Of a stretch of 54,748 nt of DNA, positions 131 through 9,480 are shown piece after piece. The stretch is from Promethearchaeota archaeon (GTDB lineage: Archaea > Asgardarchaeota > Lokiarchaeia > Sigyniarchaeales > SOKP01), in assembly GCA_016840085.1 (NCBI GenBank), contig JAEOTA010000072.1, forward strand, positions 1-54,748. The letters are read 5' to 3'. A program made the translations under genes and the position numbers. Numbering within the stretch: the first letter of the stretch is position 1; each line of letters begins with the position of its first letter. Below the pieces are notes generated by a model. The model was not told where the DNA came from, ran no database searches, and saw only the letters and a program-made list of their open reading frames with translations.

Positions 131-1051
131 ATGGTTAAAGAAAACACTTTTGCTTTCTTTTTAGGATGTTTAATGCCAAATCGATATCCTGCTATTGAAA
201 AATCAACGAAATTTGTAATGGATAAATTAGGATATGAACTCTTAGATATGGAGAGAGCAACCTGTTGCCCAGCTCCAGGAGTATTTCGATCTTTTAATAA
301 AGTTGATTGGATGGTAGCAGCAGCAAGAAATATTTGCATAGCAGAACAATTAGATGCTGATATATTAACTGTTTGCAATGGATGTTTCGGAACTCTCCAA
401 GAGGTTAACAAACACTTGAAAACAAATGAAGAACATCGTGGAATGGTAAATAAAAAATTGAAGCTTATTGGAGATTATGAATTTAAAGGAACGATAGATG
501 TTCGACATATTGCTGAAGTTTTAGGCTTTGAGATAGGTCCATGGGGAATTGAAGATCATATCGTTCGAAAAGTTAATGCTAGAGCTGCTATTCACTATGG
601 GTGTCATTTTTTGAAACCAACAAGGATTAGAGAGATTGAAAGTTCAGAAGGACCAACAATTGTAGAGGAATTTATTGAAGTATTAGGAATAGAATCAGTC
701 AGATTTAAAGAACAACTTACTTGCTGTGGAGCTGGAGGCGGGGTCAAAGCATATGATGGAAACTCAAGTATGATAATATTTGCTGATAAAATGAAAAATA
801 TTGATGAAGTAAAACCCGATTTTATTTTGGATATTTGTCCATTTTGTCATTTACAATATGAAACCGGACAAGATTACCTAAATAAGAATAAAAATTGTAA
901 TTATGATTACCCTGTAATTCATCTTTCTCAATTAACTGCCTATTGTATGGGGATGGATCAAGAATTTATTGGTCTACAATATCAATTAATGGGTAAAGAT
1001 TATATCTTTGGGAGAGAAGAAATAAAAAAGGAAGGAGAGGAGGCAATATAA
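131..1051 (+). CDS. hdrB: Heterodisulfide reductase subunit B (two CCG domains)
   Basis: FLGCLMPNRY, TCCPAPG, CNGC, HYGCH, CCGAGGG and CPFCHLQ motifs of the non-cubane Fe-S sites; GGAGG upstream. Confidence 0.95.
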   Translation: MVKENTFAFFLGCLMPNRYPAIEKSTKFVMDKLGYELLDMERATCCPAPGVFRSFNKVDWMVAAARNICIAEQLDADILTVCNGCFGTLQEVNKHLKTNEEHRGMVNKKLKLIGDYEFKGTIDVRHIAEVLGFEIGPWGIEDHIVRKVNARAAIHYGCHFLKPTRIREIESSEGPTIVEEFIEVLGIESVRFKEQLTCCGAGGGVKAYDGNSSMIIFADKMKNIDEVKPDFILDICPFCHLQYETGQDYLNKNKNCNYDYPVIHLSQLTAYCMGMDQEFIGLQYQLMGKDYIFGREEIKKEGEEAI

Positions 1052-3082
1052 TTGACAGTTAAAAATCAGAAAATAAAAGAAACAGAAGAGGTCGAGGGCA
1101 TGGTAATATCCGAAGATTCTAAAGAACCTAGAATTGGTGTTTTTGTTTGCCATTGCGGTCATAATATAGCTGGAACTGTTGATGTAGCTGAAGTCGCTGA
1201 GCATGCAAAAACTTTACCTAATGTTGTTAAAGCTGAACATTATATGTTTATGTGTTCAAAACCGGGAGTTCAGATGGTTAAAGATTCTATAAAGGAATTA
1301 GGAGTTAATCGAACTGTGGTAGCTTCTTGCTCTAAAAATCAACATGGCAAAACATTTGCTAGAGCAATTGAAGAAGTAGGTTTGAATAAACACCGTCATC
1401 AACAAGTTAACGTGAGAGAATATAATAGTTGGGTTCATAAAAAAGAAAAAGAAAAAGCAACTCAAAAAGCTATGAAGTTGGTTGAAGCAGGAGTGAATCG
1501 AGCTAGAAAATTAGAGGATGTAGAAACAAGAAGAATTCCAACAACAAAAGTGGCATTAGTTATAGGAGCGGGAATTGCTGGACTCCGATCAGCTTATGAC
1601 ATGGCGGAATTAGGAATTCCCGTATATTTAGTGGAAAAAGAATCTACTATTGGAGGTCATATGACTCGATTAAACAAAACCTTCCCAACTTTAGAGTGTC
1701 CACAATGTTCAATATCCCCTCTCACGAATGGAGTAGCTAATCATCCTTTAATAGAACTTTATACTAATGCTCAAGTGAAAAGCGTTGAGGGATCATTAGG
1801 AAACTTTGAAGTTGAGATTGAAGTTAAACCCAGGTATGTTAAAGATAATTGTACTTCTTGTGGCGAATGTGCTGCACATTGTCCTGTCGAATTACCCAGC
1901 GAATGGGATATGGGGATGTCCATGAGGAATGCAATCTATAAAGCATATCCACAAGCAATACCTGCTACTTATGTAAGAGATAAGAAAAATTGTATTGAAT
2001 GCAATACCTGTATTAATATTTGTCCTGTCCAAGCAATTGATTTCTCAATGAAACCAGAAACGAAAACTGTGAAGGTTGGTTCAATTATAGTTGCTGCTGG
2101 ATATGATGAATATGATCCTTCTGAAATTGAACCCTATCATTATGGACAAGAGGGATTCGAAGATGTGATTACACAATTAAAATTAGAACGGATGATGTCT
2201 CCAACATCGCTTACTAATAGTGAGGTTCTACGACCTTCTGATGGAAAAATCCCTAAAAGTGTTGTCATGATCCAATGTGTAGGAAGTCGAAATGATCAAG
2301 TTGGAAATCAATATTGTACTGGTGTATGTTGTAAATTTGCAATAAAAAATGCAAGAATTATTAAAGAAATGTATCCTGATACTGATGTATCAATATGTTA
2401 TATAGATATTCGAACACCAGGATTAAATTTTGAAGAATTATATAAATCTGCCCAAGAGATTGGGGTAAGGTTTATACGAGGAAGGCCATCCGAGATTATA
2501 AAAGATCCAATTTCGGGAGAATTACAAGTAATTGTTGAAGATACATTAAGTCAGACACCTTTAAAACTAAAAGCTGATTTAGTTGTTCTTTCTGCTGCTA
2601 TGGTTCCTCCTGAAGGAATTGGTCCACTTGGTTCTAAACTTCATGTTTTAAGGTCCAAAGAGGGATTTTTAAAAGAGTTTCATATAAAAATGAATCCTAC
2701 TTTAAGTAGTAAGGGAGGGATTTTCTTGGCAGGTGCAATTCAAGGTCCAAAGGATATTTCAGAAACGGTTGCTCATGCTGGTAATGCTGCTGCTTTAGCC
2801 GCAGCTCCTTTAGTGAAAGGATATATCGAAAAAGAAATACTAATTCCTTCGATTGATTATGATTTATGTGTAAATTGTGAACTTTGTAAAACAGTATGCG
2901 CTCCAGCAGCAATAGACATCGATGAAAATGGATCTCCAGTTATAAATGAAATTGCTTGTAAATCTTGTGGTATGTGTATGCCTGTATGTCCTACAGGCGC
3001 GATTCAATTAATAAATTTTAGAGATGATCAACTATTAGATGAAATAATTGCCGTATCTGGCGGAGGTGCTGTTTGCGAATGA
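1052..3082 (+). CDS. hdrA: Heterodisulfide reductase subunit A (FAD, electron-bifurcating type), TTG start
   Basis: GVFVCHCG, GAGIAG, LNKTFPTLECPQC, inserted and C-terminal 2x[4Fe-4S] ferredoxin domains, QCVGSR..YCTGVCC, QGPKDI. Confidence 0.97.
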   Translation: MTVKNQKIKETEEVEGMVISEDSKEPRIGVFVCHCGHNIAGTVDVAEVAEHAKTLPNVVKAEHYMFMCSKPGVQMVKDSIKELGVNRTVVASCSKNQHGKTFARAIEEVGLNKHRHQQVNVREYNSWVHKKEKEKATQKAMKLVEAGVNRARKLEDVETRRIPTTKVALVIGAGIAGLRSAYDMAELGIPVYLVEKESTIGGHMTRLNKTFPTLECPQCSISPLTNGVANHPLIELYTNAQVKSVEGSLGNFEVEIEVKPRYVKDNCTSCGECAAHCPVELPSEWDMGMSMRNAIYKAYPQAIPATYVRDKKNCIECNTCINICPVQAIDFSMKPETKTVKVGSIIVAAGYDEYDPSEIEPYHYGQEGFEDVITQLKLERMMSPTSLTNSEVLRPSDGKIPKSVVMIQCVGSRNDQVGNQYCTGVCCKFAIKNARIIKEMYPDTDVSICYIDIRTPGLNFEELYKSAQEIGVRFIRGRPSEIIKDPISGELQVIVEDTLSQTPLKLKADLVVLSAAMVPPEGIGPLGSKLHVLRSKEGFLKEFHIKMNPTLSSKGGIFLAGAIQGPKDISETVAHAGNAAALAAAPLVKGYIEKEILIPSIDYDLCVNCELCKTVCAPAAIDIDENGSPVINEIACKSCGMCMPVCPTGAIQLINFRDDQLLDEIIAVSGGGAVCE

Positions 3083-3531
3083 GTGTGTGTGAAATCACTG
3101 ACGAATTGATAAAAGAAAAGATTCAAGATGTTGTTGTTTTTATGTGTAACGAATGTGGTCAAGGATCTGCTAATACTGCGGGTGTTGCACGAATGGGATA
3201 TAATCCAGCAATAAGAATAATCAGAGTTCAATGTACAGGTCAAATTGGTCCTATTCAAATTATGGATGCATTAAATAATGGAGCAGATGCTGTTGCTTGC
3301 ATTGGATGCTGTTTAGGAGCTTGCCATTTTTTTAATGGAAATATACTTTCAATGCATAGAATTAAACTGATGAAGAAATTATGCAAAGAGTTAGGATATA
3401 GTGATCAATTTTTAAACCAATATACATCTCGAGCAGCAGAAGGCGAAACCGCTGTAGGTGATTTTGAAGATATTATAGATAGATTATCAACTGCAATTAA
3501 AGATGAGGGAACGATTAAAGATGGATGTTAA
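3079..3531 (+). CDS. mvhD: MvhD/FlpD [2Fe-2S] subunit
   Basis: FMCNEC, IRVQCTG, GCCLGACHFFNGN; likely start is ATG 3079, overlapping the hdrA stop (ATGA). Confidence 0.9.
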   Translation: MSVCEITDELIKEKIQDVVVFMCNECGQGSANTAGVARMGYNPAIRIIRVQCTGQIGPIQIMDALNNGADAVACIGCCLGACHFFNGNILSMHRIKLMKKLCKELGYSDQFLNQYTSRAAEGETAVGDFEDIIDRLSTAIKDEGTIKDGC

Positions 3532-4756
3532 AGTATTTCAATTCAATGGTTGCAATAAATGTTTTAACGAAACGTTACTCCTAAAGTTGGATTCGAATTA
3601 TAAAATACAATTTATAAAAGAACCACAAAATTGGAAAGGAGTAAAAACAGAAGTAGCTGTAATCACTGGATATCTATTACCAGATGATAAAGTACATCTA
3701 GAGAAAATTAAGGTAAACTCAGAACGAGTTATTGCATATGGAGATTGTACAACCATGGGAGGAGTTTTTGCATTAGCAAACCAAAATGGTTATGAAATTA
3801 CACCTTTAAAAGAATTTATTGATTATCAAATAAATGTTAATGGTTGTTTAGGGGAAATTGAAGAATTAAAGTCGGTGATTGACAGAAAAGAACCATCAAA
3901 ACTAAAATCTCTCTGTGAGGTGTGTGCACGCAAGGCAACTTGTGAATATTTAGATGCTGTATACCGTCAGATTGAATCAGATGATAAAGAAACGTGTTAT
4001 AATGATTTAGGATTTCTATGTAATGGATTTATAGCTAAAGAATGTAAAGAACGATGTATCAACTACAACACACCCTGCAGAGGTTGCAAACCAATGGTAG
4101 AAAGATCTGGTATTAGAATGTTAGGAATGTTCGGCACACTTATGGGAAATATTGAAATTGTTACTGAGCACTCTGAAAAGGGCGCAACTGATAAACTTGG
4201 AGATGAAGAAGATGATGTAACAAGAAGTTTACCTGATATTCTTGGTAACTTCTTTAGATTCACACTGCCTACCTCCGGTTTGCCTAAAGGAAGAATAAAA
4301 TCTTCAGGTACAACATTAGAAAATGTTTTTACAGGAAGATTAATTGAAGAATTGCCATTAATTTCTGGATTATTAGGGGGAAGTAAGTCAATTTCATTAA
4401 CACTAAAAATTATTGAATCCTATGAGGAGGCAAATCAAATTGAAATAAGCGAGAGAACAAAGAAATATCGTGAAGAATTATTGAAATTAGAAACAGATCT
4501 TGAGAAAGCGTTGGAAAATGAAGATTCAAAACAGTATAAAGAAATAACTAGTGAAATTCGAAAAATTGCTGGTAATATGAATTTATCTAACATCTTCTTT
4601 GGTGGATTTAAATCCCAAATTAATGAAAATGACAATTTTGATGATTACAAAAGCCACATTTTTGAAGTGGTTGAAGGAACCTATAAGCACGGTTCAGTTG
4701 AATATACAATAGATCCTAATGGTATAGTTAAAGAAATTAAGATTAAAGAGGGATGA
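3521..4756 (+). CDS. MvhG-like hydrogenase small subunit fused to a degenerate, Cys-less MvhA-like N-terminal fragment
   Basis: GCNKC, YGDC..GG, NGC, LCEVC, CYNDLGFLCNG, PCRGC and DILGNFFRFTLP match MvhG; the C-terminal ~150 aa resemble the large-subunit L1 region without cysteines; likely start ATG 3521. Confidence 0.8.
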   Translation: MDVKVFQFNGCNKCFNETLLLKLDSNYKIQFIKEPQNWKGVKTEVAVITGYLLPDDKVHLEKIKVNSERVIAYGDCTTMGGVFALANQNGYEITPLKEFIDYQINVNGCLGEIEELKSVIDRKEPSKLKSLCEVCARKATCEYLDAVYRQIESDDKETCYNDLGFLCNGFIAKECKERCINYNTPCRGCKPMVERSGIRMLGMFGTLMGNIEIVTEHSEKGATDKLGDEEDDVTRSLPDILGNFFRFTLPTSGLPKGRIKSSGTTLENVFTGRLIEELPLISGLLGGSKSISLTLKIIESYEEANQIEISERTKKYREELLKLETDLEKALENEDSKQYKEITSEIRKIAGNMNLSNIFFGGFKSQINENDNFDDYKSHIFEVVEGTYKHGSVEYTIDPNGIVKEIKIKEG

Positions 4757-7230
4757 ATATGAGTTTTGAATTATTGAAAAAAGAAATTATTGACGTTGGA
4801 TTATGCCAAGGTTGTGGATTATGTACCGGTTCCTGTAAGCATATTGAGATGGAAGTATTACGGCCTATATTAAAGGATTATTGTATCCTTGAAAGAGATG
4901 GACAAGATTGTGGCAAATGTTATCAAAGTTGTCCTCAAGTTATCCAGAAAAAGTTTAAACAAAAACAACCTAAAGCAATTTATTCTTTAAGAAGCAAAAA
5001 TCCTGAAATTTTGACTAAAGCTGCTAATGGTGGTGTAGTTACAACCCTAGCTAAAAATCTATTAGATAATCAATCACTTGCTAAAATAATTATGGTTCAA
5101 GATTTCAATGAAAAACCTCAAGCAGACATTGTAACTGACCCTGATGAAGTTGTAAAAAAGGCTGGAGTAGTATACGGACGTTCAGGAGTTTTAGAAAAAT
5201 TAGTAGAAGTTGTTGGAGAAACTTTCGAACCTATAGGAATAGTTGGGGTTCCTTGTGAGATGAGAGGTGCTGCTGAATTGGAGGAAGAAATGAATAGAGA
5301 AATTTTAAAAATTGGTTTATTTTGTAATTCTCAAATGCAAACAGAACAAACTGACAAAGGCATAGTATGTTCTCCTTGCTGTAGTGGTTGTCCATCAGGG
5401 GTAAATGCACAAGGATATATTTCCCTAATTAGACAAGGTCAATATCAAGACGCTGTTGATTTAATCCGTGAAAGTAACCCACTTCCTTCTATATGTGGAA
5501 GAATTTGTACTAATGAATGTGAACATGGTTGTACTTTGATTGGAGATGACCATCCAGTAGCAATCCGAGAACTAAAGAAATTCGTGACTGAATGGGAGAT
5601 AGAACAAGCTAAAAAGAATAGTGCAAAAGGTAAAAGAAATATTAAAAAAGGTGCTAAAAAAGTAGCAATTATAGGTTCTGGACCAGCAGGGTTAACTGCT
5701 GCATATTTTTTAAGAAGAATAGGGTATGCACCAACTATTTTTGAAAAATCAGATCAAACAGGAGGCATGCTAAGATTCGGAGTACCGCAATTTAGATTAC
5801 CAAATTATGTATTAGATTACGATGTACAAAATATTCAAAATTCAGGGGTCGAGATAATTCTAAATAAACCATTAGGACCCGAAATGACGATTGAAGACTT
5901 AAAAAATGATGGATTTGAAGCTATTTTTATCGCTACTGGCCAATATAAACTTCGGACACTTCATTTAGAAGGAGAAGACCTTCCTAATGTTCATGTAGCA
6001 ATTACGTTTCTAATGGATAGAAAATACCGCTATTGGGAAAATAAAGAAGAATTTAAGGGAAAAACTCTGGGGATAATTGGTGGTGGTCCTGTAGCAATTG
6101 ATGTTGCTCAAACAGCTCTTCGATTAGGTGCAACCAAAGTTCATCTTGTTGATATAATGACAGAAGGACAACTTGAACTAGTTTTAAAAGACATTCCAGA
6201 AAATGAAATTGATTATATGCAATATCATTTTACTACGTCAACATCTAGAATTACTCAGAATAATGAAGGAAAACTCATGTTAAATTGTTATAAAATTGAA
6301 TGGGGAACTCCTGATGAAAATGGTAAAAGACCGTTAAATAAGATTGAAGATTCAGATTATGAAATTCCAATTGATTCAATTGTAATTGCTGTTGGTCAAG
6401 CTGTTGATTTTGACCAGATTGATGTTGCTACTGATAATAAATTAGAAAAAGAGCGAAATAAGATTAAAATAAATGAAGTCACTTTTGAAACAAACATACC
6501 TGGAGTATTTGCAGGTGGAGACATAATTAATAATTCAAAAGCAGTAGCAATTGCGGCAATAGCTCATGGAAAAGAAGCTGCTATCTCAATAGATAAATTT
6601 CTAAAAGGAGAGGATTTAATAGCCGGACGATATAAACAAGATAAGATGTTTTTTACTGGACCTAAAAAATCTCCAAAAGATTATTCGCCTAAACCAGGAA
6701 ATTTAGAAGAAGCTACTGAAGAAATTCAGTGGAGTTTTGAAGAGATTGATCAAATGTTTAATGAAGATATGGCATTAAAAGAAGCTCGCCGATGTTTAAG
6801 TTGTAATCATTTTTGCTCTCATTGTCAAGATTTTCCAGCAATTTATTCTGATTTAACTGCTGGTGAAGTTGGTTCTCAAAAAGGATATACAACAGTTGTA
6901 GTTTGGACTGATAAAGGTAAAGAAATCGTAGAGTCAGCAATCAAAAACGGTTTATTTGAAGAAGGAGAAGTGAACGAGGGTGAATTAAACAAAGCAATTA
7001 ACCTAAAGTCAAAACGAGAGCTCTTAACTTTTGAAAAAACTCCAAGACAGCAAATCTTAGATTATATCACCATCCAAGGACAAAGTACTATAAGTGATCT
7101 GGCAAAACAGTTAGATATTGAACCTAAAAAAGTACGATATGAAGCACTTCGACTAGCTCAATTAATGCAAATTGAAATGAAAGTTGATCCTGATATGGAT
7201 GAGCCATTATTTACTTTAATATGTGATTAA
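4753..7230 (+). CDS. Ferredoxin-FrhB/FdhB family protein with an inserted GltD/NfnB-type FAD/NAD(P)H oxidoreductase module and C-terminal wHTH
   Basis: CQGCGLC..C, NGGVVT, VGVPCE, IGLFC (FrhB N-part); PCCSGCP, NPLPSICGRIC, GSGPAG, GGMLRFGVP, GGGPVA, FAGGD, EARRCLSC (GltD); CSHCQDF..DLTAGEVGS..TTVVV.TDKG (FrhB C-part); QQILDYI..TISDLAKQL (HTH). Confidence 0.85.
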   Translation: MNMSFELLKKEIIDVGLCQGCGLCTGSCKHIEMEVLRPILKDYCILERDGQDCGKCYQSCPQVIQKKFKQKQPKAIYSLRSKNPEILTKAANGGVVTTLAKNLLDNQSLAKIIMVQDFNEKPQADIVTDPDEVVKKAGVVYGRSGVLEKLVEVVGETFEPIGIVGVPCEMRGAAELEEEMNREILKIGLFCNSQMQTEQTDKGIVCSPCCSGCPSGVNAQGYISLIRQGQYQDAVDLIRESNPLPSICGRICTNECEHGCTLIGDDHPVAIRELKKFVTEWEIEQAKKNSAKGKRNIKKGAKKVAIIGSGPAGLTAAYFLRRIGYAPTIFEKSDQTGGMLRFGVPQFRLPNYVLDYDVQNIQNSGVEIILNKPLGPEMTIEDLKNDGFEAIFIATGQYKLRTLHLEGEDLPNVHVAITFLMDRKYRYWENKEEFKGKTLGIIGGGPVAIDVAQTALRLGATKVHLVDIMTEGQLELVLKDIPENEIDYMQYHFTTSTSRITQNNEGKLMLNCYKIEWGTPDENGKRPLNKIEDSDYEIPIDSIVIAVGQAVDFDQIDVATDNKLEKERNKIKINEVTFETNIPGVFAGGDIINNSKAVAIAAIAHGKEAAISIDKFLKGEDLIAGRYKQDKMFFTGPKKSPKDYSPKPGNLEEATEEIQWSFEEIDQMFNEDMALKEARRCLSCNHFCSHCQDFPAIYSDLTAGEVGSQKGYTTVVVWTDKGKEIVESAIKNGLFEEGEVNEGELNKAINLKSKRELLTFEKTPRQQILDYITIQGQSTISDLAKQLDIEPKKVRYEALRLAQLMQIEMKVDPDMDEPLFTLICD

Positions 7231-7264
7231 GACTAAAACTAATAAATATTAAAAGGTAAAGAAT

Positions 7265-7501
7265 ATGAAATTTGATATGGAATTAAATGTCTGCGGATTA
7301 GTATGTCCTGTTCCAGCTTTAAAAACAAAGAAACAACTCATGAAAATGAGACCTGGAACTGTTTTGAAGGTTATAACAGATTACAAACCGGCAAGTGAAT
7401 CTGTTCCACGTGATTTAGCAAAAACGAAACACAAGCATTTAGGAACAGACTTTATAGAAGACGATGAGCAATGGTATATCTATTTTGAAGCAGTGAAGTA
7501 A
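7265..7501 (+). CDS. tusA: TusA/SirA-family sulfur carrier protein
   Basis: LNVCGLVCPVP (CPxP motif), G.VLKVITD..A..SVP; 78 aa. Confidence 0.9.
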   Translation: MKFDMELNVCGLVCPVPALKTKKQLMKMRPGTVLKVITDYKPASESVPRDLAKTKHKHLGTDFIEDDEQWYIYFEAVK

Positions 7502-7641
7502 GATTAAAATTATATCTTTTTATCTTTATTTTTTATTAAATTTTATTCTCTTGATTTCAATTTTTACATTATATTTAAAATTATAAGTAGCTTATTAATG
7601 TTAATTATAGTTATAAGATTATAATTCCAATCAGAGGAGTA

Positions 7642-7918
7642 TATGTCTCAATCAGAACCAAGAGAATTAACTCAAGCTAAAGAATTATTTAAAGAAGGGA
7701 AATTAGTAGACTCTCTTCAATTATTAGAGGATTTAAAAAGGTGATACCTTAGAACGAGCAGCAAATATTACTGGAGCCTTATTGTGGGATCTTTTTGATG
7801 AAATGAAAAATCGGGGTATAACTTCAAAATTTGATATCGATCAAGAGAAAGAAACATATCTACGTGTTTTTGGGAAAGTTAATAAAGTATTAAAAGATAA
7901 AATAAGAGATCTTCAATA
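7642..7918 (+). pseudogene. Chimeric remnant: 5' end of a TPR-like gene joined out of frame to the 3' end of a UPF0175-like antitoxin
   Basis: GAGGAG then MSQSEPRELTQAKELFKEGKLVDSLQLLE*; in another frame TLERAANITGALLWDLFDEMKNRGI..DLQ*. Confidence 0.5.
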
Positions 7919-7980
7919 ATAAAGGATCAGCGTTTTGCAGAACCACTACCATAGTATATCCATGGGAAAAATATAAGTTT

Positions 7981-8148
7981 ACAATTGTTCAAACATTAGT
8001 GCCATTATTTGGAGTAATCTTCTCTGCTATATTTTTACAAGAGGAATTTGATGTTTCCATCTATCCTTTTGCCTTATTATTAGTAATATTTGGAATCACC
8101 CTTATAAATCGTAATTCCTCCTATAAAGAAGAAGAAAAATCTAGTTAA
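7981..8148 (+). pseudogene. EamA/DMT transporter 3' remnant (copy a)
   Basis: QTLVPLFGVIFSAIFLQEEF..PFALLLVIFGITLIN*; no 5' part; homologous to 9749-9910. Confidence 0.65.
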
Positions 8149-8232
8149 AGTGTTATAAAATGCAATTCAAATAAAATTTAAATTTTAACACTTCATAATA
8201 AATATTAATATATATATAGTATATTTGTATAC

Positions 8233-8532
8233 ATGAGGTATATTAATATGTCGATTGTGAAAATAAAAAATAAGAAAGCATTGGAACAGTTACAAGCTAA
8301 ATTAACACTAAGACTAGGGCGAAAAGCTACGCAGATAGAAATACTTGATTATTGTTTAATATTAGCAAATGATAATTTTGAAAAATTGGTGGAATTAGTG
8401 ACCTGCATGCCAATTTTAAGTCTTGAAAAATCTGAGCAAATTATCGAAGCGAGAAATAAACTTAAGAATGTAATTTATGATGAAGAAGCTTCCTTTGGCA
8501 GTAGAGATGATGAAGATATTTATAATGAATAA
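8233..8532 (+). CDS. Putative VapB-type antitoxin
   Basis: Small protein with basic N-terminus and acidic tail (RDDEDIYNE), directly upstream of a PIN gene. Confidence 0.7.
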   Translation: MRYINMSIVKIKNKKALEQLQAKLTLRLGRKATQIEILDYCLILANDNFEKLVELVTCMPILSLEKSEQIIEARNKLKNVIYDEEASFGSRDDEDIYNE

Positions 8533-8541
8533 TTCAGTATA

Positions 8542-9003
8542 ATGGTGAGAATAATGGGGGTTTTTCTTGATACGGGGTTTTACTTGGGGTTGTGTCATCC
8601 TAAAGATCAACATGCACAAGAAAGTGAAAAAATGTTGAAATTGCTTAGTATGGGAGAGCATGGATTATTATATAGTTCCAATCTTATCATTAGTGAAGTC
8701 ACAACTTTAGCAGCTGTGCGTTCCAATAATAATGTCAATGTATTAAACCATCTCGGAAATTTAATATGGGGAAAACAAAAAATTGCCACAGTCTTACATT
8801 TTGAATCGTATTTAGAATCTGAAACTTGGGAATTATTTAAGAAAATAAATACCATCGATTTGAAAGACTCAAGGCCAATGAGTTTTGTTGATGTATCATC
8901 AATTGTTTTATGTCAACACCATCAAATTGATAAAATTGTAAGTTTTGATCCACATTTCGATAGATTTTTGGAAAAAATCAAAATGCTTCGTATTACTGAC
9001 TGA
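8542..9003 (+). CDS. vapC: VapC/PIN-domain toxin
   Basis: VFLDTG, HPKDQH, IISE, MSFVD, IVSFDPHF PIN motifs. Confidence 0.92.
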   Translation: MVRIMGVFLDTGFYLGLCHPKDQHAQESEKMLKLLSMGEHGLLYSSNLIISEVTTLAAVRSNNNVNVLNHLGNLIWGKQKIATVLHFESYLESETWELFKKINTIDLKDSRPMSFVDVSSIVLCQHHQIDKIVSFDPHFDRFLEKIKMLRITD

Positions 9004-9109
9004 TACACTTTTTCTTCTTTCGCATCAATTTTACAAAATAATAGGAGATAAACTATGTTAAAATAGATTTTAAGAAGAAATTAAAAAAAATAACCAAAAC
9101 ACATAAAAT

Positions 9110-9214
9110 TTGTTCACAGGCATAATCTTTGAATGATCTTTTTTTATTCGGTCTAAAACAATCTCAGTTTTAACCTCTTCTACTCCAGGGAGGTTGCGGA
9201 GCGTTTCAATAAGA
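9110..9214 (-). pseudogene. Lrp/AsnC regulator 3' remnant (copy a)
   Basis: LIETLRNLPGVEEVKTEIVLDRIK; homologous to 9905-9986. Confidence 0.7.
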
Positions 9215-9300
9215 AAAAAACTTAGTAAGAGTGAAATAGATTAAATTAACACTCTTATTTTAAATTTATTGATATATTAAAAAAAAATTTTAATTTGATA

Positions 9301-9480
9301 TTAATAATGAATTATCCGCTTTTTAGACCGCATTTCAATAATTATAGCTATAATAGCTACTCCACTTATTGCCAATATAAGGATACTCGTTGTGACATAA
9401 TCCAAACCAATTGCAGGACTTACCTTTTTTATTGTAACCGATTCTGAGGCAAGATGTCCTAACGTATCACTAATACTTTT
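9301..9480 (-). pseudogene. C-terminal remnant of a membrane-anchored surface protein
   Basis: DTLGHLASESVTIKK, then a hydrophobic helix and basic tail; no credible start or signal peptide. Confidence 0.5.

Follow-up and report, generated by a model that had tools for sequence, protein, structure and literature searches.

A MvhG-type subunit fused to a reduced [NiFe]-hydrogenase large subunit without nickel ligands in an archaeal Hdr operon

What does a hydrogenase small subunit do in an operon that encodes no catalytic subunit, and what is the extra domain that it carries there? This question is raised by one end of a 54,748-nucleotide stretch of DNA from a Promethearchaeota archaeon (GenBank assembly GCA_016840085.1, contig JAEOTA010000072.1, positions 1 to 54,748 of the forward strand; hereafter the window). 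The genes hdrB, hdrA and mvhD are followed directly by a gene for a MvhG-type [NiFe]-hydrogenase small subunit with a C-terminal tail, and no large-subunit gene (PF00374) was found in the operon, either in the window or in any of 66 loci. A preliminary description made from the sequence had taken the tail for a fused fossil of the large subunit. Here we show homology of the tail with the large subunit; the two share a core fold made of the helices around the L1 nickel motif and the APRG hairpin. We propose that the protein is an MvhG-type electron-transfer subunit joined to a group-3c large subunit that was cut to about 150 residues and lost its nickel ligands. On sequence and predicted structure, its probable role within an Hdr complex would be that of a wire of three clusters, fed by a flavoprotein, with the relic as a partner surface. 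What is said on function in this text is deduced from the sequence, the fold and the surrounding genes.

The tail is homologous to the [NiFe] large subunit

The fusion gene has an in-frame upstream ATG at 3503, which would extend the protein to 417 residues, and homologues all begin at the second ATG (M7, nucleotide 3521, MDVK). Residue numbers of the fusion are counted from the ATG at 3503. Residues 1-265 form the small subunit and residues 266-417 the tail; in the alignments to PDB entries 9sw2_E and 5odc_E, the homology to MvhG stops at about residue 265. The strings quoted in the preliminary description are all present in the frame of the open reading frame (ORF) 3503/3521-4756 on the + strand, with FFRFTLP at residues 250-256, LENVFTGRLIEELPLISGLLGGSKSISLTLKIIESYEEANQIEISERTKKYRE at 272-324, IRKIAGNMNLSNIFFGGF at 352-369 and NGCLG at 113-117. 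The span of 4300-4756 that it had given for the tail is also near the measured one (nucleotides 4298-4753).

The similarity is already visible between single sequences. BLASTP of the tail against the large subunit of its own genome aligned tail residues 6-65 with residues 37-96, in the L1 region, with 17 identities over 60 ungapped positions (E 6e-5). For profile-profile comparison with hhalign, 22 aligned Asgard large subunits served as the target. When the query profile was built from 46 close tails, the E-value was only 0.009, yet none of 200 column shuffles attained that score. With 53 representatives covering all clades, tail residues 6-76 matched large-subunit residues 42-117 with a probability of 89.5%, an E-value of 2e-6 and a score of 48.3. 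This is about 13 standard deviations (SD) above 150 column shuffles (mean 14.4, SD 2.6, maximum 24.0), and shuffling in blocks of 8 columns gave at most 28.8. The C-terminal strands of the tail matched the APRG hairpin with E 0.003 when compared alone and E 0.021 as a second alignment, and the two matches are co-linear. BLASTP and hhalign place the pattern GRxxEExPxIxxxxxG of the tail and of the large subunits in a common register. A hidden Markov model (HMM) of the first segment matched, always at one position and with up to 25 bits, 19 of the 22 Asgard large subunits; these 19 are all the group-3c proteins of the set and are of the MvhA/VhuA type with about 435 residues.

Searches that were not directed at large subunits also reached them. 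The profile of 46 close tails had 25 matches among 1.84 billion representative proteins. Most are members of the family or fragments of members, the divergent ones with 31-52% identity, and three are repetitive proteins of 1,300-2,100 residues. One further match (P0145, E 8e-4) bears RICGACSVAH, is aligned in the same register and is a group-3 large subunit by NCBIfam (ShyA 2e-14, VhuA 3e-12, FrhA 2e-11). The tail search of 400 Asgard genomes likewise picked out a true large subunit of 446 residues (E 4.6e-4). In an ESM Atlas feature search, PF00374 clusters came at ranks 5 and 10 (0.88 and 0.87), which is a lead and not evidence. Two seemingly stand-alone tails (P0125 and P0133) were rejected as split genes; they are fragments from contigs of 642-1140 nucleotides, as is P0145.

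Of the two by-eye matches in the preliminary description, the one between the tail and the L1 pattern lies far above chance in these comparisons. The other, which set IRKIAGNMNLSNIFFGGF against I..GG..IHP.....GG, was not above chance at the level of sequence: compared with large-subunit residues 118-353, its hhalign score of 10.1 falls within the shuffled range (mean 10.7, maximum 19.5), and comparison with the complete subunit gave no signal for the L2 region either.

The predicted structure extends the similarity to practically the whole tail. AlphaFold (AF2) returned a mean predicted local distance difference test (pLDDT) score of 39 from 26 near-identical homologues. With a deeper input of 117 sequences, to which Thor-clade, methanogen and other divergent members had been added, the template-free model reached a pLDDT of 93.6 and a predicted template modelling (pTM) score of 0.92. 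In this model, the tail is built from a short helix, four helices, the conserved loop and a three-stranded sheet, and the pTM indicates that it packs firmly on the Fe-S domain. An exhaustive VIA-align search with model residues 268-417 returned the [NiFe] large subunits FrhA (6qgt_A, chain range 39-402; Z 12.0, root mean square deviation (rmsd) 2.8 Å, 149 residues aligned), an actinobacterial one (5aa5_C; Z 11.1, 2.5 Å, 147) and HyhL (5yxy_A; Z 9.3, 2.7 Å, 145). It also returned the NuoD homologues 7zm7_C (Z 10.1, 2.6 Å, 149) and 8qby_D (Z 10.1, 2.7 Å, 150), as well as MbsL (6u8y_l; Z 9.7, 2.7 Å, 151). The order of the matched parts is that of the sequence alignments, and no unrelated folds appear in the VIA-align list for these residues. 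The Foldseek list from the PDB was occupied by small subunits and was uninformative on the tail. Since practically every tail residue is matched on large subunits, the tail is a large-subunit core minus about 285 residues. It lacks the N-terminal hairpin, most of residues 118-352 and the last 40 residues at the C-terminus.

Lost nickel ligands and conservation of the fusion

As had been read from the sequence, the nickel-binding RxCGxC is replaced at LLGGSKS. The positions of RxCGxCxxxH read LLGGSKSISL in the window protein, and both cysteines are substituted in 53 of 53 representatives, the first by Gly, Tyr or Phe and the second by Lys, Arg, His, Tyr or Asn. The glycine between them is retained in 52 of 53. 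The absence of a C-terminal DPCxxC was likewise borne out: the protein stops just past the equivalent of the APRG hairpin, and the nickel ligands of DPCxxCxxH (L5) are not present in the tail. No column of the 53 tails reaches 35% Cys or 30% His. With no nickel ligands, no DPCxxC and no conserved Cys or His, a [NiFe] site in the tail is excluded. What has been retained is GR..EE.P.I before L1, the helices after it, and a highly conserved loop, AGNMNLSN..FGGF. The tail is most conserved in AGNMNLSNIFFGGF, where G357, S362 and G368 are invariant and N358, L361, N363 and F369 are conserved in at least 90%. On its sequence, this loop may be a new feature. Thor-clade tails (P0136, P0147-P0173) mostly end in GIIREWSCEL, with a Cys that is not found in the Loki clade and that is not invariant in the Thor clade, where some members have Y or I.

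The small-subunit domain has kept the ligands of an electron-transfer chain. PF01058 is the sole Pfam match in the N-terminal part (44.1 bits; the curated cut-off is 27). Among proteins of solved structure, the nearest are the MvhG/VhuG subunits of Hdr-hydrogenase complexes (9sw2_E and 5odc_E), with E ~1e-13 for the single sequence and ~5e-32 for the family profile against the PDB sequences (4.7e-32 for 9sw2_E). Model residues 7-265 superimpose on 5odc_E with Z 20.5 and rmsd 3.1 over 244 residues in VIA-align, and the Foldseek search of the PDB with the model gave a small-subunit match at E 1.2e-14. Across 117 family sequences, 12 cysteines are conserved, which is enough for the proximal, medial and distal [4Fe-4S] clusters. 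C82, C115, C138, C141, C165, C173, C185, C192 and C195 are invariant and C17, C20 and C181 are conserved in at least 90%; C17, C20, C82 and C115 were assigned to the proximal cluster. At the level of sequence, the domain is thus shown to keep the ligands for three [4Fe-4S] clusters. The change of the proximal-cluster motif PGCPP to NGCLG that had been pointed out is real, but it is a feature of the Loki clade alone, GCPP being retained by the Thor-clade and methanogen members, and the Cys ligand is kept everywhere.

Two word-indexed searches found more than 370 homologues of 403-431 residues, with source labels of Loki-/Promethearchaeota, Thor-, Hermod-, Hod- and Odinarchaeota, among them DSAG12_01149 of the cultured Promethearchaeum syntrophicum. 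The tail is present in 81 of 400 Asgard species genomes. Of its 82 matches there, 77 lie in frames of 412-452 residues, one in a frame of 477 and four in short frames (28-334), mostly close to contig ends; no convincing split version of the fusion was found among them. Pairwise ratios of nonsynonymous to synonymous substitution rates (dN/dS) are 0.06-0.21 for the tail and 0.06-0.22 for the Fe-S domain. Purifying selection acts on the tail as it does on the Fe-S domain and, with the frames intact, the expectation that homologues conserve the fusion was confirmed. In the 400-genome search, the operon was found in 32 of 53 genomes of the window's genus and 64 of 134 of its family. This patchiness points to an accessory rather than a core module, although incomplete genomes may be part of the cause.

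Could the tail nevertheless be an unrelated helical/beta extension, similar to a large subunit by chance or convergence? It has no Pfam or NCBIfam family match (sub-threshold matches of the tail alone to IR1-M, DUF272 and NusG_myco were rejected as noise). HMMER with the 46-sequence tail profile found nothing under E 0.3 among the PDB sequences, and only small subunits and NuoB are among the best 60 of the 106 matches of the full-family profile there. The weak hhalign result with close relatives alone would also fit such an extension, and Z values of 10-12 in VIA-align are possible by chance in helical proteins. However, chance does not readily account for the result with diverse relatives, with two co-linear segments, or for six large-subunit and NuoD-type entries that align over 145-151 residues with a tail of 150. 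Nor does it account for the shared register, for the true large subunits that emerged from unbiased searches, or for a fusion partner that is the cognate small subunit. The evidence from profiles, fold and register largely refutes this explanation, which we regard as very unlikely. Less probable again, to the point of being negligible, is that the gene is decaying as a pseudogene or arose from a frameshifted mvhG-mvhA junction or an error of assembly. Only the unusual architecture speaks for it; the one variant of 470 residues (L060) is explained by a scaffold gap. A family of this size and uniform length, spread over several Asgard classes and one methanogen family, with low dN/dS and a compact, confidently predicted fold, is not what decay or misassembly would leave behind, and conservation rules these origins out. 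The tail thus has both profile and structural similarity to large subunits and is conserved under purifying selection. The fused fossil of the preliminary description is upheld by three independent lines: the profile-profile homology to the L1 region and the APRG hairpin, the match to a group-3 fragment in the whole-library HMM search and the fold match of the whole tail.

Gene context and proposed role

The coordinates of the fusion and of its neighbours are given in Table 1. The start of the fusion gene overlaps the end of mvhD by 11 nucleotides, and its stop forms an ATGA overlap with the next start; starts and stops also overlap in the hdrB-hdrA-mvhD genes directly upstream. As the window begins at a contig end, hdrC is cut off. 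As far as contigs extend, the order hdrB-hdrA-mvhD-fusion-frhB::gltD-tusA is identical in 66 of 66 loci.

Table 1 Features of the fusion gene and its operon in the window (positions in nucleotides)
Feature	Position	Strand	Basis
hdrB	131-1051	+	Pfam CCG
hdrA	1052-3082	+	Pfam FAD/4Fe-4S
mvhD	3073-3531	+	Pfam FlpD
Whole fusion gene, 411 aa from ATG 3521	3521..4756	+	ORF list and sequence
MvhG-type [NiFe]-hydrogenase small-subunit domain	3521..4297	+	PF01058, PDB matches, fold, Cys columns
Tail, Cys/His-free mini large subunit of ~150 aa	4298..4753	+	AF2, VIA-align, dN/dS
Segment homologous to large-subunit residues ~42-117 (helices around the L1 nickel motif)	4316..4528	+	hhalign, HMM, BLASTP
LLGGSK, degenerate L1 motif aligned to RICGIC	4370..4387	+	hhalign register, column counts
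AGNMNLSNIFFGGF, most conserved stretch of the tail	4568..4609	+	Conservation; no L2-region match
C-terminal strands, matched to the large-subunit hairpin EAPRG..H....D..G (residues ~353-397)	4643..4741	+	hhalign
frhB::gltD, FrhB split by a GltD-type 2x[4Fe-4S]/FAD/NAD(P) module, winged helix-turn-helix end, 825 aa	4753-7230	+	Pfam, NCBIfam
tusA	7265-7501	+	Pfam, synteny

The gene after the fusion codes for FrhB_N and FrhB_C around a complete GltD-type module (Fer4_20 and Pyr_redox_2), and its winged helix-turn-helix end is HVO_A0114/TFIIE-alpha-like. On its domains, FrhB::GltD is probably an electron-input flavoprotein. In the closest related locus (L002), dsrE, a dsrF-like gene, dsrH, a DsrE2-type gene and hdrC lie upstream of hdrB (374-2625). 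An Hdr operon framed by sulfur-relay genes suggests a protein-persulfide substrate rather than CoM-S-S-CoB.

The fusion is also found outside Asgard archaea, in a divergent cluster (P0132) labelled Methermicoccaceae (Methanosarcinales) and on a Methermicoccaceae-like metagenome contig of 236 kb (L112), where a copy with 69% identity lies at 7001-8179. The order on that contig is hdrC-hdrB-hdrA-mvhD-fusion-frhB; its FrhB (8166-9350) is plain, without the GltD insert, and is also winged helix-turn-helix-ended. The P0132/P0134 cluster and the copy on this contig have GCPP intact and keep the Arg at L1 (ASRVFG/ASRIYG). In sequence, the Methermicoccaceae copies look more large-subunit-like than the Asgard ones. 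The fusion is either old or has been transferred.

In our proposal, the fusion protein would almost certainly no longer activate H2 and would serve as a three-cluster wire inside the Hdr complex. Electrons would enter through FrhB::GltD, with NAD(P)H as the donor in Asgard archaea, by way of the GltD FAD, and F420H2 as the donor in systems with a plain FrhB. From there they would pass along the small-subunit clusters to the [2Fe-2S] cluster of MvhD and to the bifurcating FAD of HdrA. HdrBC would reduce a disulfide or persulfide, with tusA and dsrEFH hinting at a protein-bound sulfur species. The small-subunit face at the proximal cluster evolved under the cover of a large subunit and would still require a partner surface, which may be why the relic was kept. 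The relic would shield this cluster, lend it stability and very likely also offer a docking surface for a partner at that end. The preliminary description had likewise suggested a structural lid over this cluster.

Several points weigh against this proposal. PF00374 does not match the tail, even at E-values up to 10, and no large-subunit sequence corresponds to the central third of the tail, in which its most conserved motif lies. The distal cluster is where the redox partner docks in Frh as well as in Mvh:Hdr. Moreover, MvhD can be the direct docking site of FrhB-family proteins in formate-dependent Hdr complexes (Methanospirillum), and such docking here would make the fusion a side branch. 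As FrhB in Frh and MvhD in Mvh:Hdr normally both use the distal end, one of them may now use the proximal end covered by the relic.

It is with these points in mind that two other roles have to be weighed. The fusion could still be part of a working hydrogenase, with the large subunit of contig 41 binding in trans. The genome holds one PF00374 large subunit (434 residues; in locus L001, positions 11184-14420 of contig 41), and the ligands of all three Fe-S clusters are kept in the fusion. However, the contig 41 protein adjoins a small subunit of its own with 440 residues (the two are ORFs 57-1379 and 1384-2688 of L001), and the relic is predicted to be packed firmly on the small-subunit domain of the fusion. 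The same operon without a large subunit recurs in all 66 loci and, beside a plain FrhB, on the Methermicoccaceae-like contig. We therefore consider a hydrogenase assembled in trans highly improbable. Closer to our proposal is the possibility that the relic is mainly a docking adaptor or part of a new active pocket, which together with the small subunit binds FrhB::GltD or TusA/DsrE. Since the bulk of the large subunit has been lost, the proximal cluster would lie near the surface, and the binding site would be analogous to the quinone site between NuoB and NuoD next to N2. Such a role would help to explain how MvhD and FrhB share one three-cluster wire though both normally use its distal end. 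It would also fit the loop AGNMNLSN..FGGF, which, having no large-subunit counterpart, suggests a new interface, the constraint on the tail, which equals that on the Fe-S domain, and the presence of tusA in the operon and of dsrEFH upstream. On the other hand, the tail has no conserved Cys or His able to handle sulfur or a cofactor, and docking and shielding are not mutually exclusive. Docking as the main role seems to us rather unlikely. An even bolder version, which we rate lower still, is that relic and small subunit together build a new functional site around the proximal [4Fe-4S] cluster, comparable to the NuoB-NuoD pocket but soluble, at which FrhB::GltD or a TusA/DsrE persulfide would exchange electrons. 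If true, the cavity of a hydrogenase active site would have been re-used for other redox chemistry a second time and independently, in the archaea most closely related to eukaryotes. A wire whose proximal end would be covered by the relic remains our preferred reading, which we consider likely.

The true large subunit of this genome has features of its own. It ends in …KLPDPWIK, without a C-terminal DPCxxCxxH, and all fetched Asgard large subunits of about 435-455 residues share this type of end. A split of VhuA and VhuU, with a separate selenocysteine-containing peptide, has been reported for Asgard archaea (PMC11291895), and the missing end fits such a split. Simple motif searches found no VhuU-like ORF in the genome. 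In the 440-residue small subunit beside it, the Fe-S segment is seemingly duplicated.

Relation to known hydrogenases and electron-transfer complexes

The nearest known relatives are the MvhAGD-HdrABC and Vhu-Hdr complexes (5ODC, 9SW2). In sequence as in fold, MvhG is the nearest match to the small-subunit domain; mvhD and hdrABC are neighbours as they are here, and the tail is nearest to the Asgard large subunits of about 435 residues of the MvhA/VhuA type. What sets the fusion apart is that the large subunit has shrunk from about 435 to about 150 residues, has lost its four Ni/Fe-binding cysteines and is joined to MvhG, and that a gene for an FrhB-type flavoprotein stands in the place of mvhA.

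The FrhBG-HdrA2B2C2 system of Methermicoccus shengliensis probably belongs to the same family. Its genes are ordered FrhB1-"FrhG"-MvhD-HdrA2-HdrB2-HdrC2 (Kurth et al. 2021, PMC8630106), which is the gene order of the Methermicoccaceae-like contig. A table in that study gives transcript values for the cluster and apparently protein-abundance values for FrhB1 and FrhG, and a ferredoxin-dependent F420H2:heterodisulfide oxidoreductase was proposed. On the basis of gene order, its FrhG (BP07_RS03525) is probably a member of the fusion family; it is named FrhG there without mention of a large-subunit remnant. The Asgard version differs by the GltD module within FrhB and by the sulfur-relay genes around the operon.

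These relationships bear on how Asgard metabolism is reconstructed. Annotation pipelines label the fusion paralogue as "F420-reducing hydrogenase gamma subunit" or "NuoB family protein", and metabolic models of Asgard archaea, including the hydrogen-dependence scenarios of eukaryogenesis, count "MvhADG-HdrABC" from matches to MvhG, MvhD and Hdr. MK-D1 is said to have MvhADG-HdrABC as its sole hydrogenase (PMC7015854). As the fusion paralogue comes without a catalytic subunit, it should not be counted as a hydrogenase. Both Promethearchaeum syntrophicum, which has the gene, and Methermicoccus shengliensis, in which a cluster of the same order is expressed, are in culture, which makes the hypothesis experimentally approachable.

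The modularity of the small subunit is also seen in the HyhS-HydA hybrids of archaeal group F [FeFe] hydrogenases, which are present in Lokiarchaeia as well (Greening et al. 2024, PMC11216029). Both proteins consist of a group 3 [NiFe] small-subunit domain with a module fused to its C-terminus. In HyhS-HydA, however, an active [FeFe] H-cluster domain makes up this module, and a complete [NiFe] large subunit is encoded alongside, whereas here the module is an inactivated large subunit. Fusions among complex I subunits, NuoB-C-D, have also been reported (PMC11237513). The relic itself is not described in the literature that we searched on Asgard hydrogenases and Hdr. What appears to be undescribed is the combination, within an Hdr complex, of a soluble group-3c pair in which only a third of the large subunit remains, covalently joined to the cognate small subunit.

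NuoD, MbxL/MbsL and Ehr are the established nickel-free descendants of group 4 large subunits. Like them, the tail has lost its nickel ligands and has been retained beside a small-subunit homologue and its proximal cluster, and it aligns structurally to NuoD-type chains with Z ~10. Unlike them, it belongs to a soluble group 3 protein, is joined to the small subunit and has lost two-thirds of its length. NuoD, MbsL and Ehr keep the full-length fold of about 370-430 residues, as separate subunits or NuoC-D fusions in membrane-bound group 4 complexes, in which a new quinone or sulfur site was created. As two-thirds of the large subunit were deleted, the parts retained here define the minimal piece that the small subunit apparently cannot spare. 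The fusion captures a stage in the transition from hydrogenase to electron-transfer module that is otherwise represented mainly by complex I and Mbx/Mbs.

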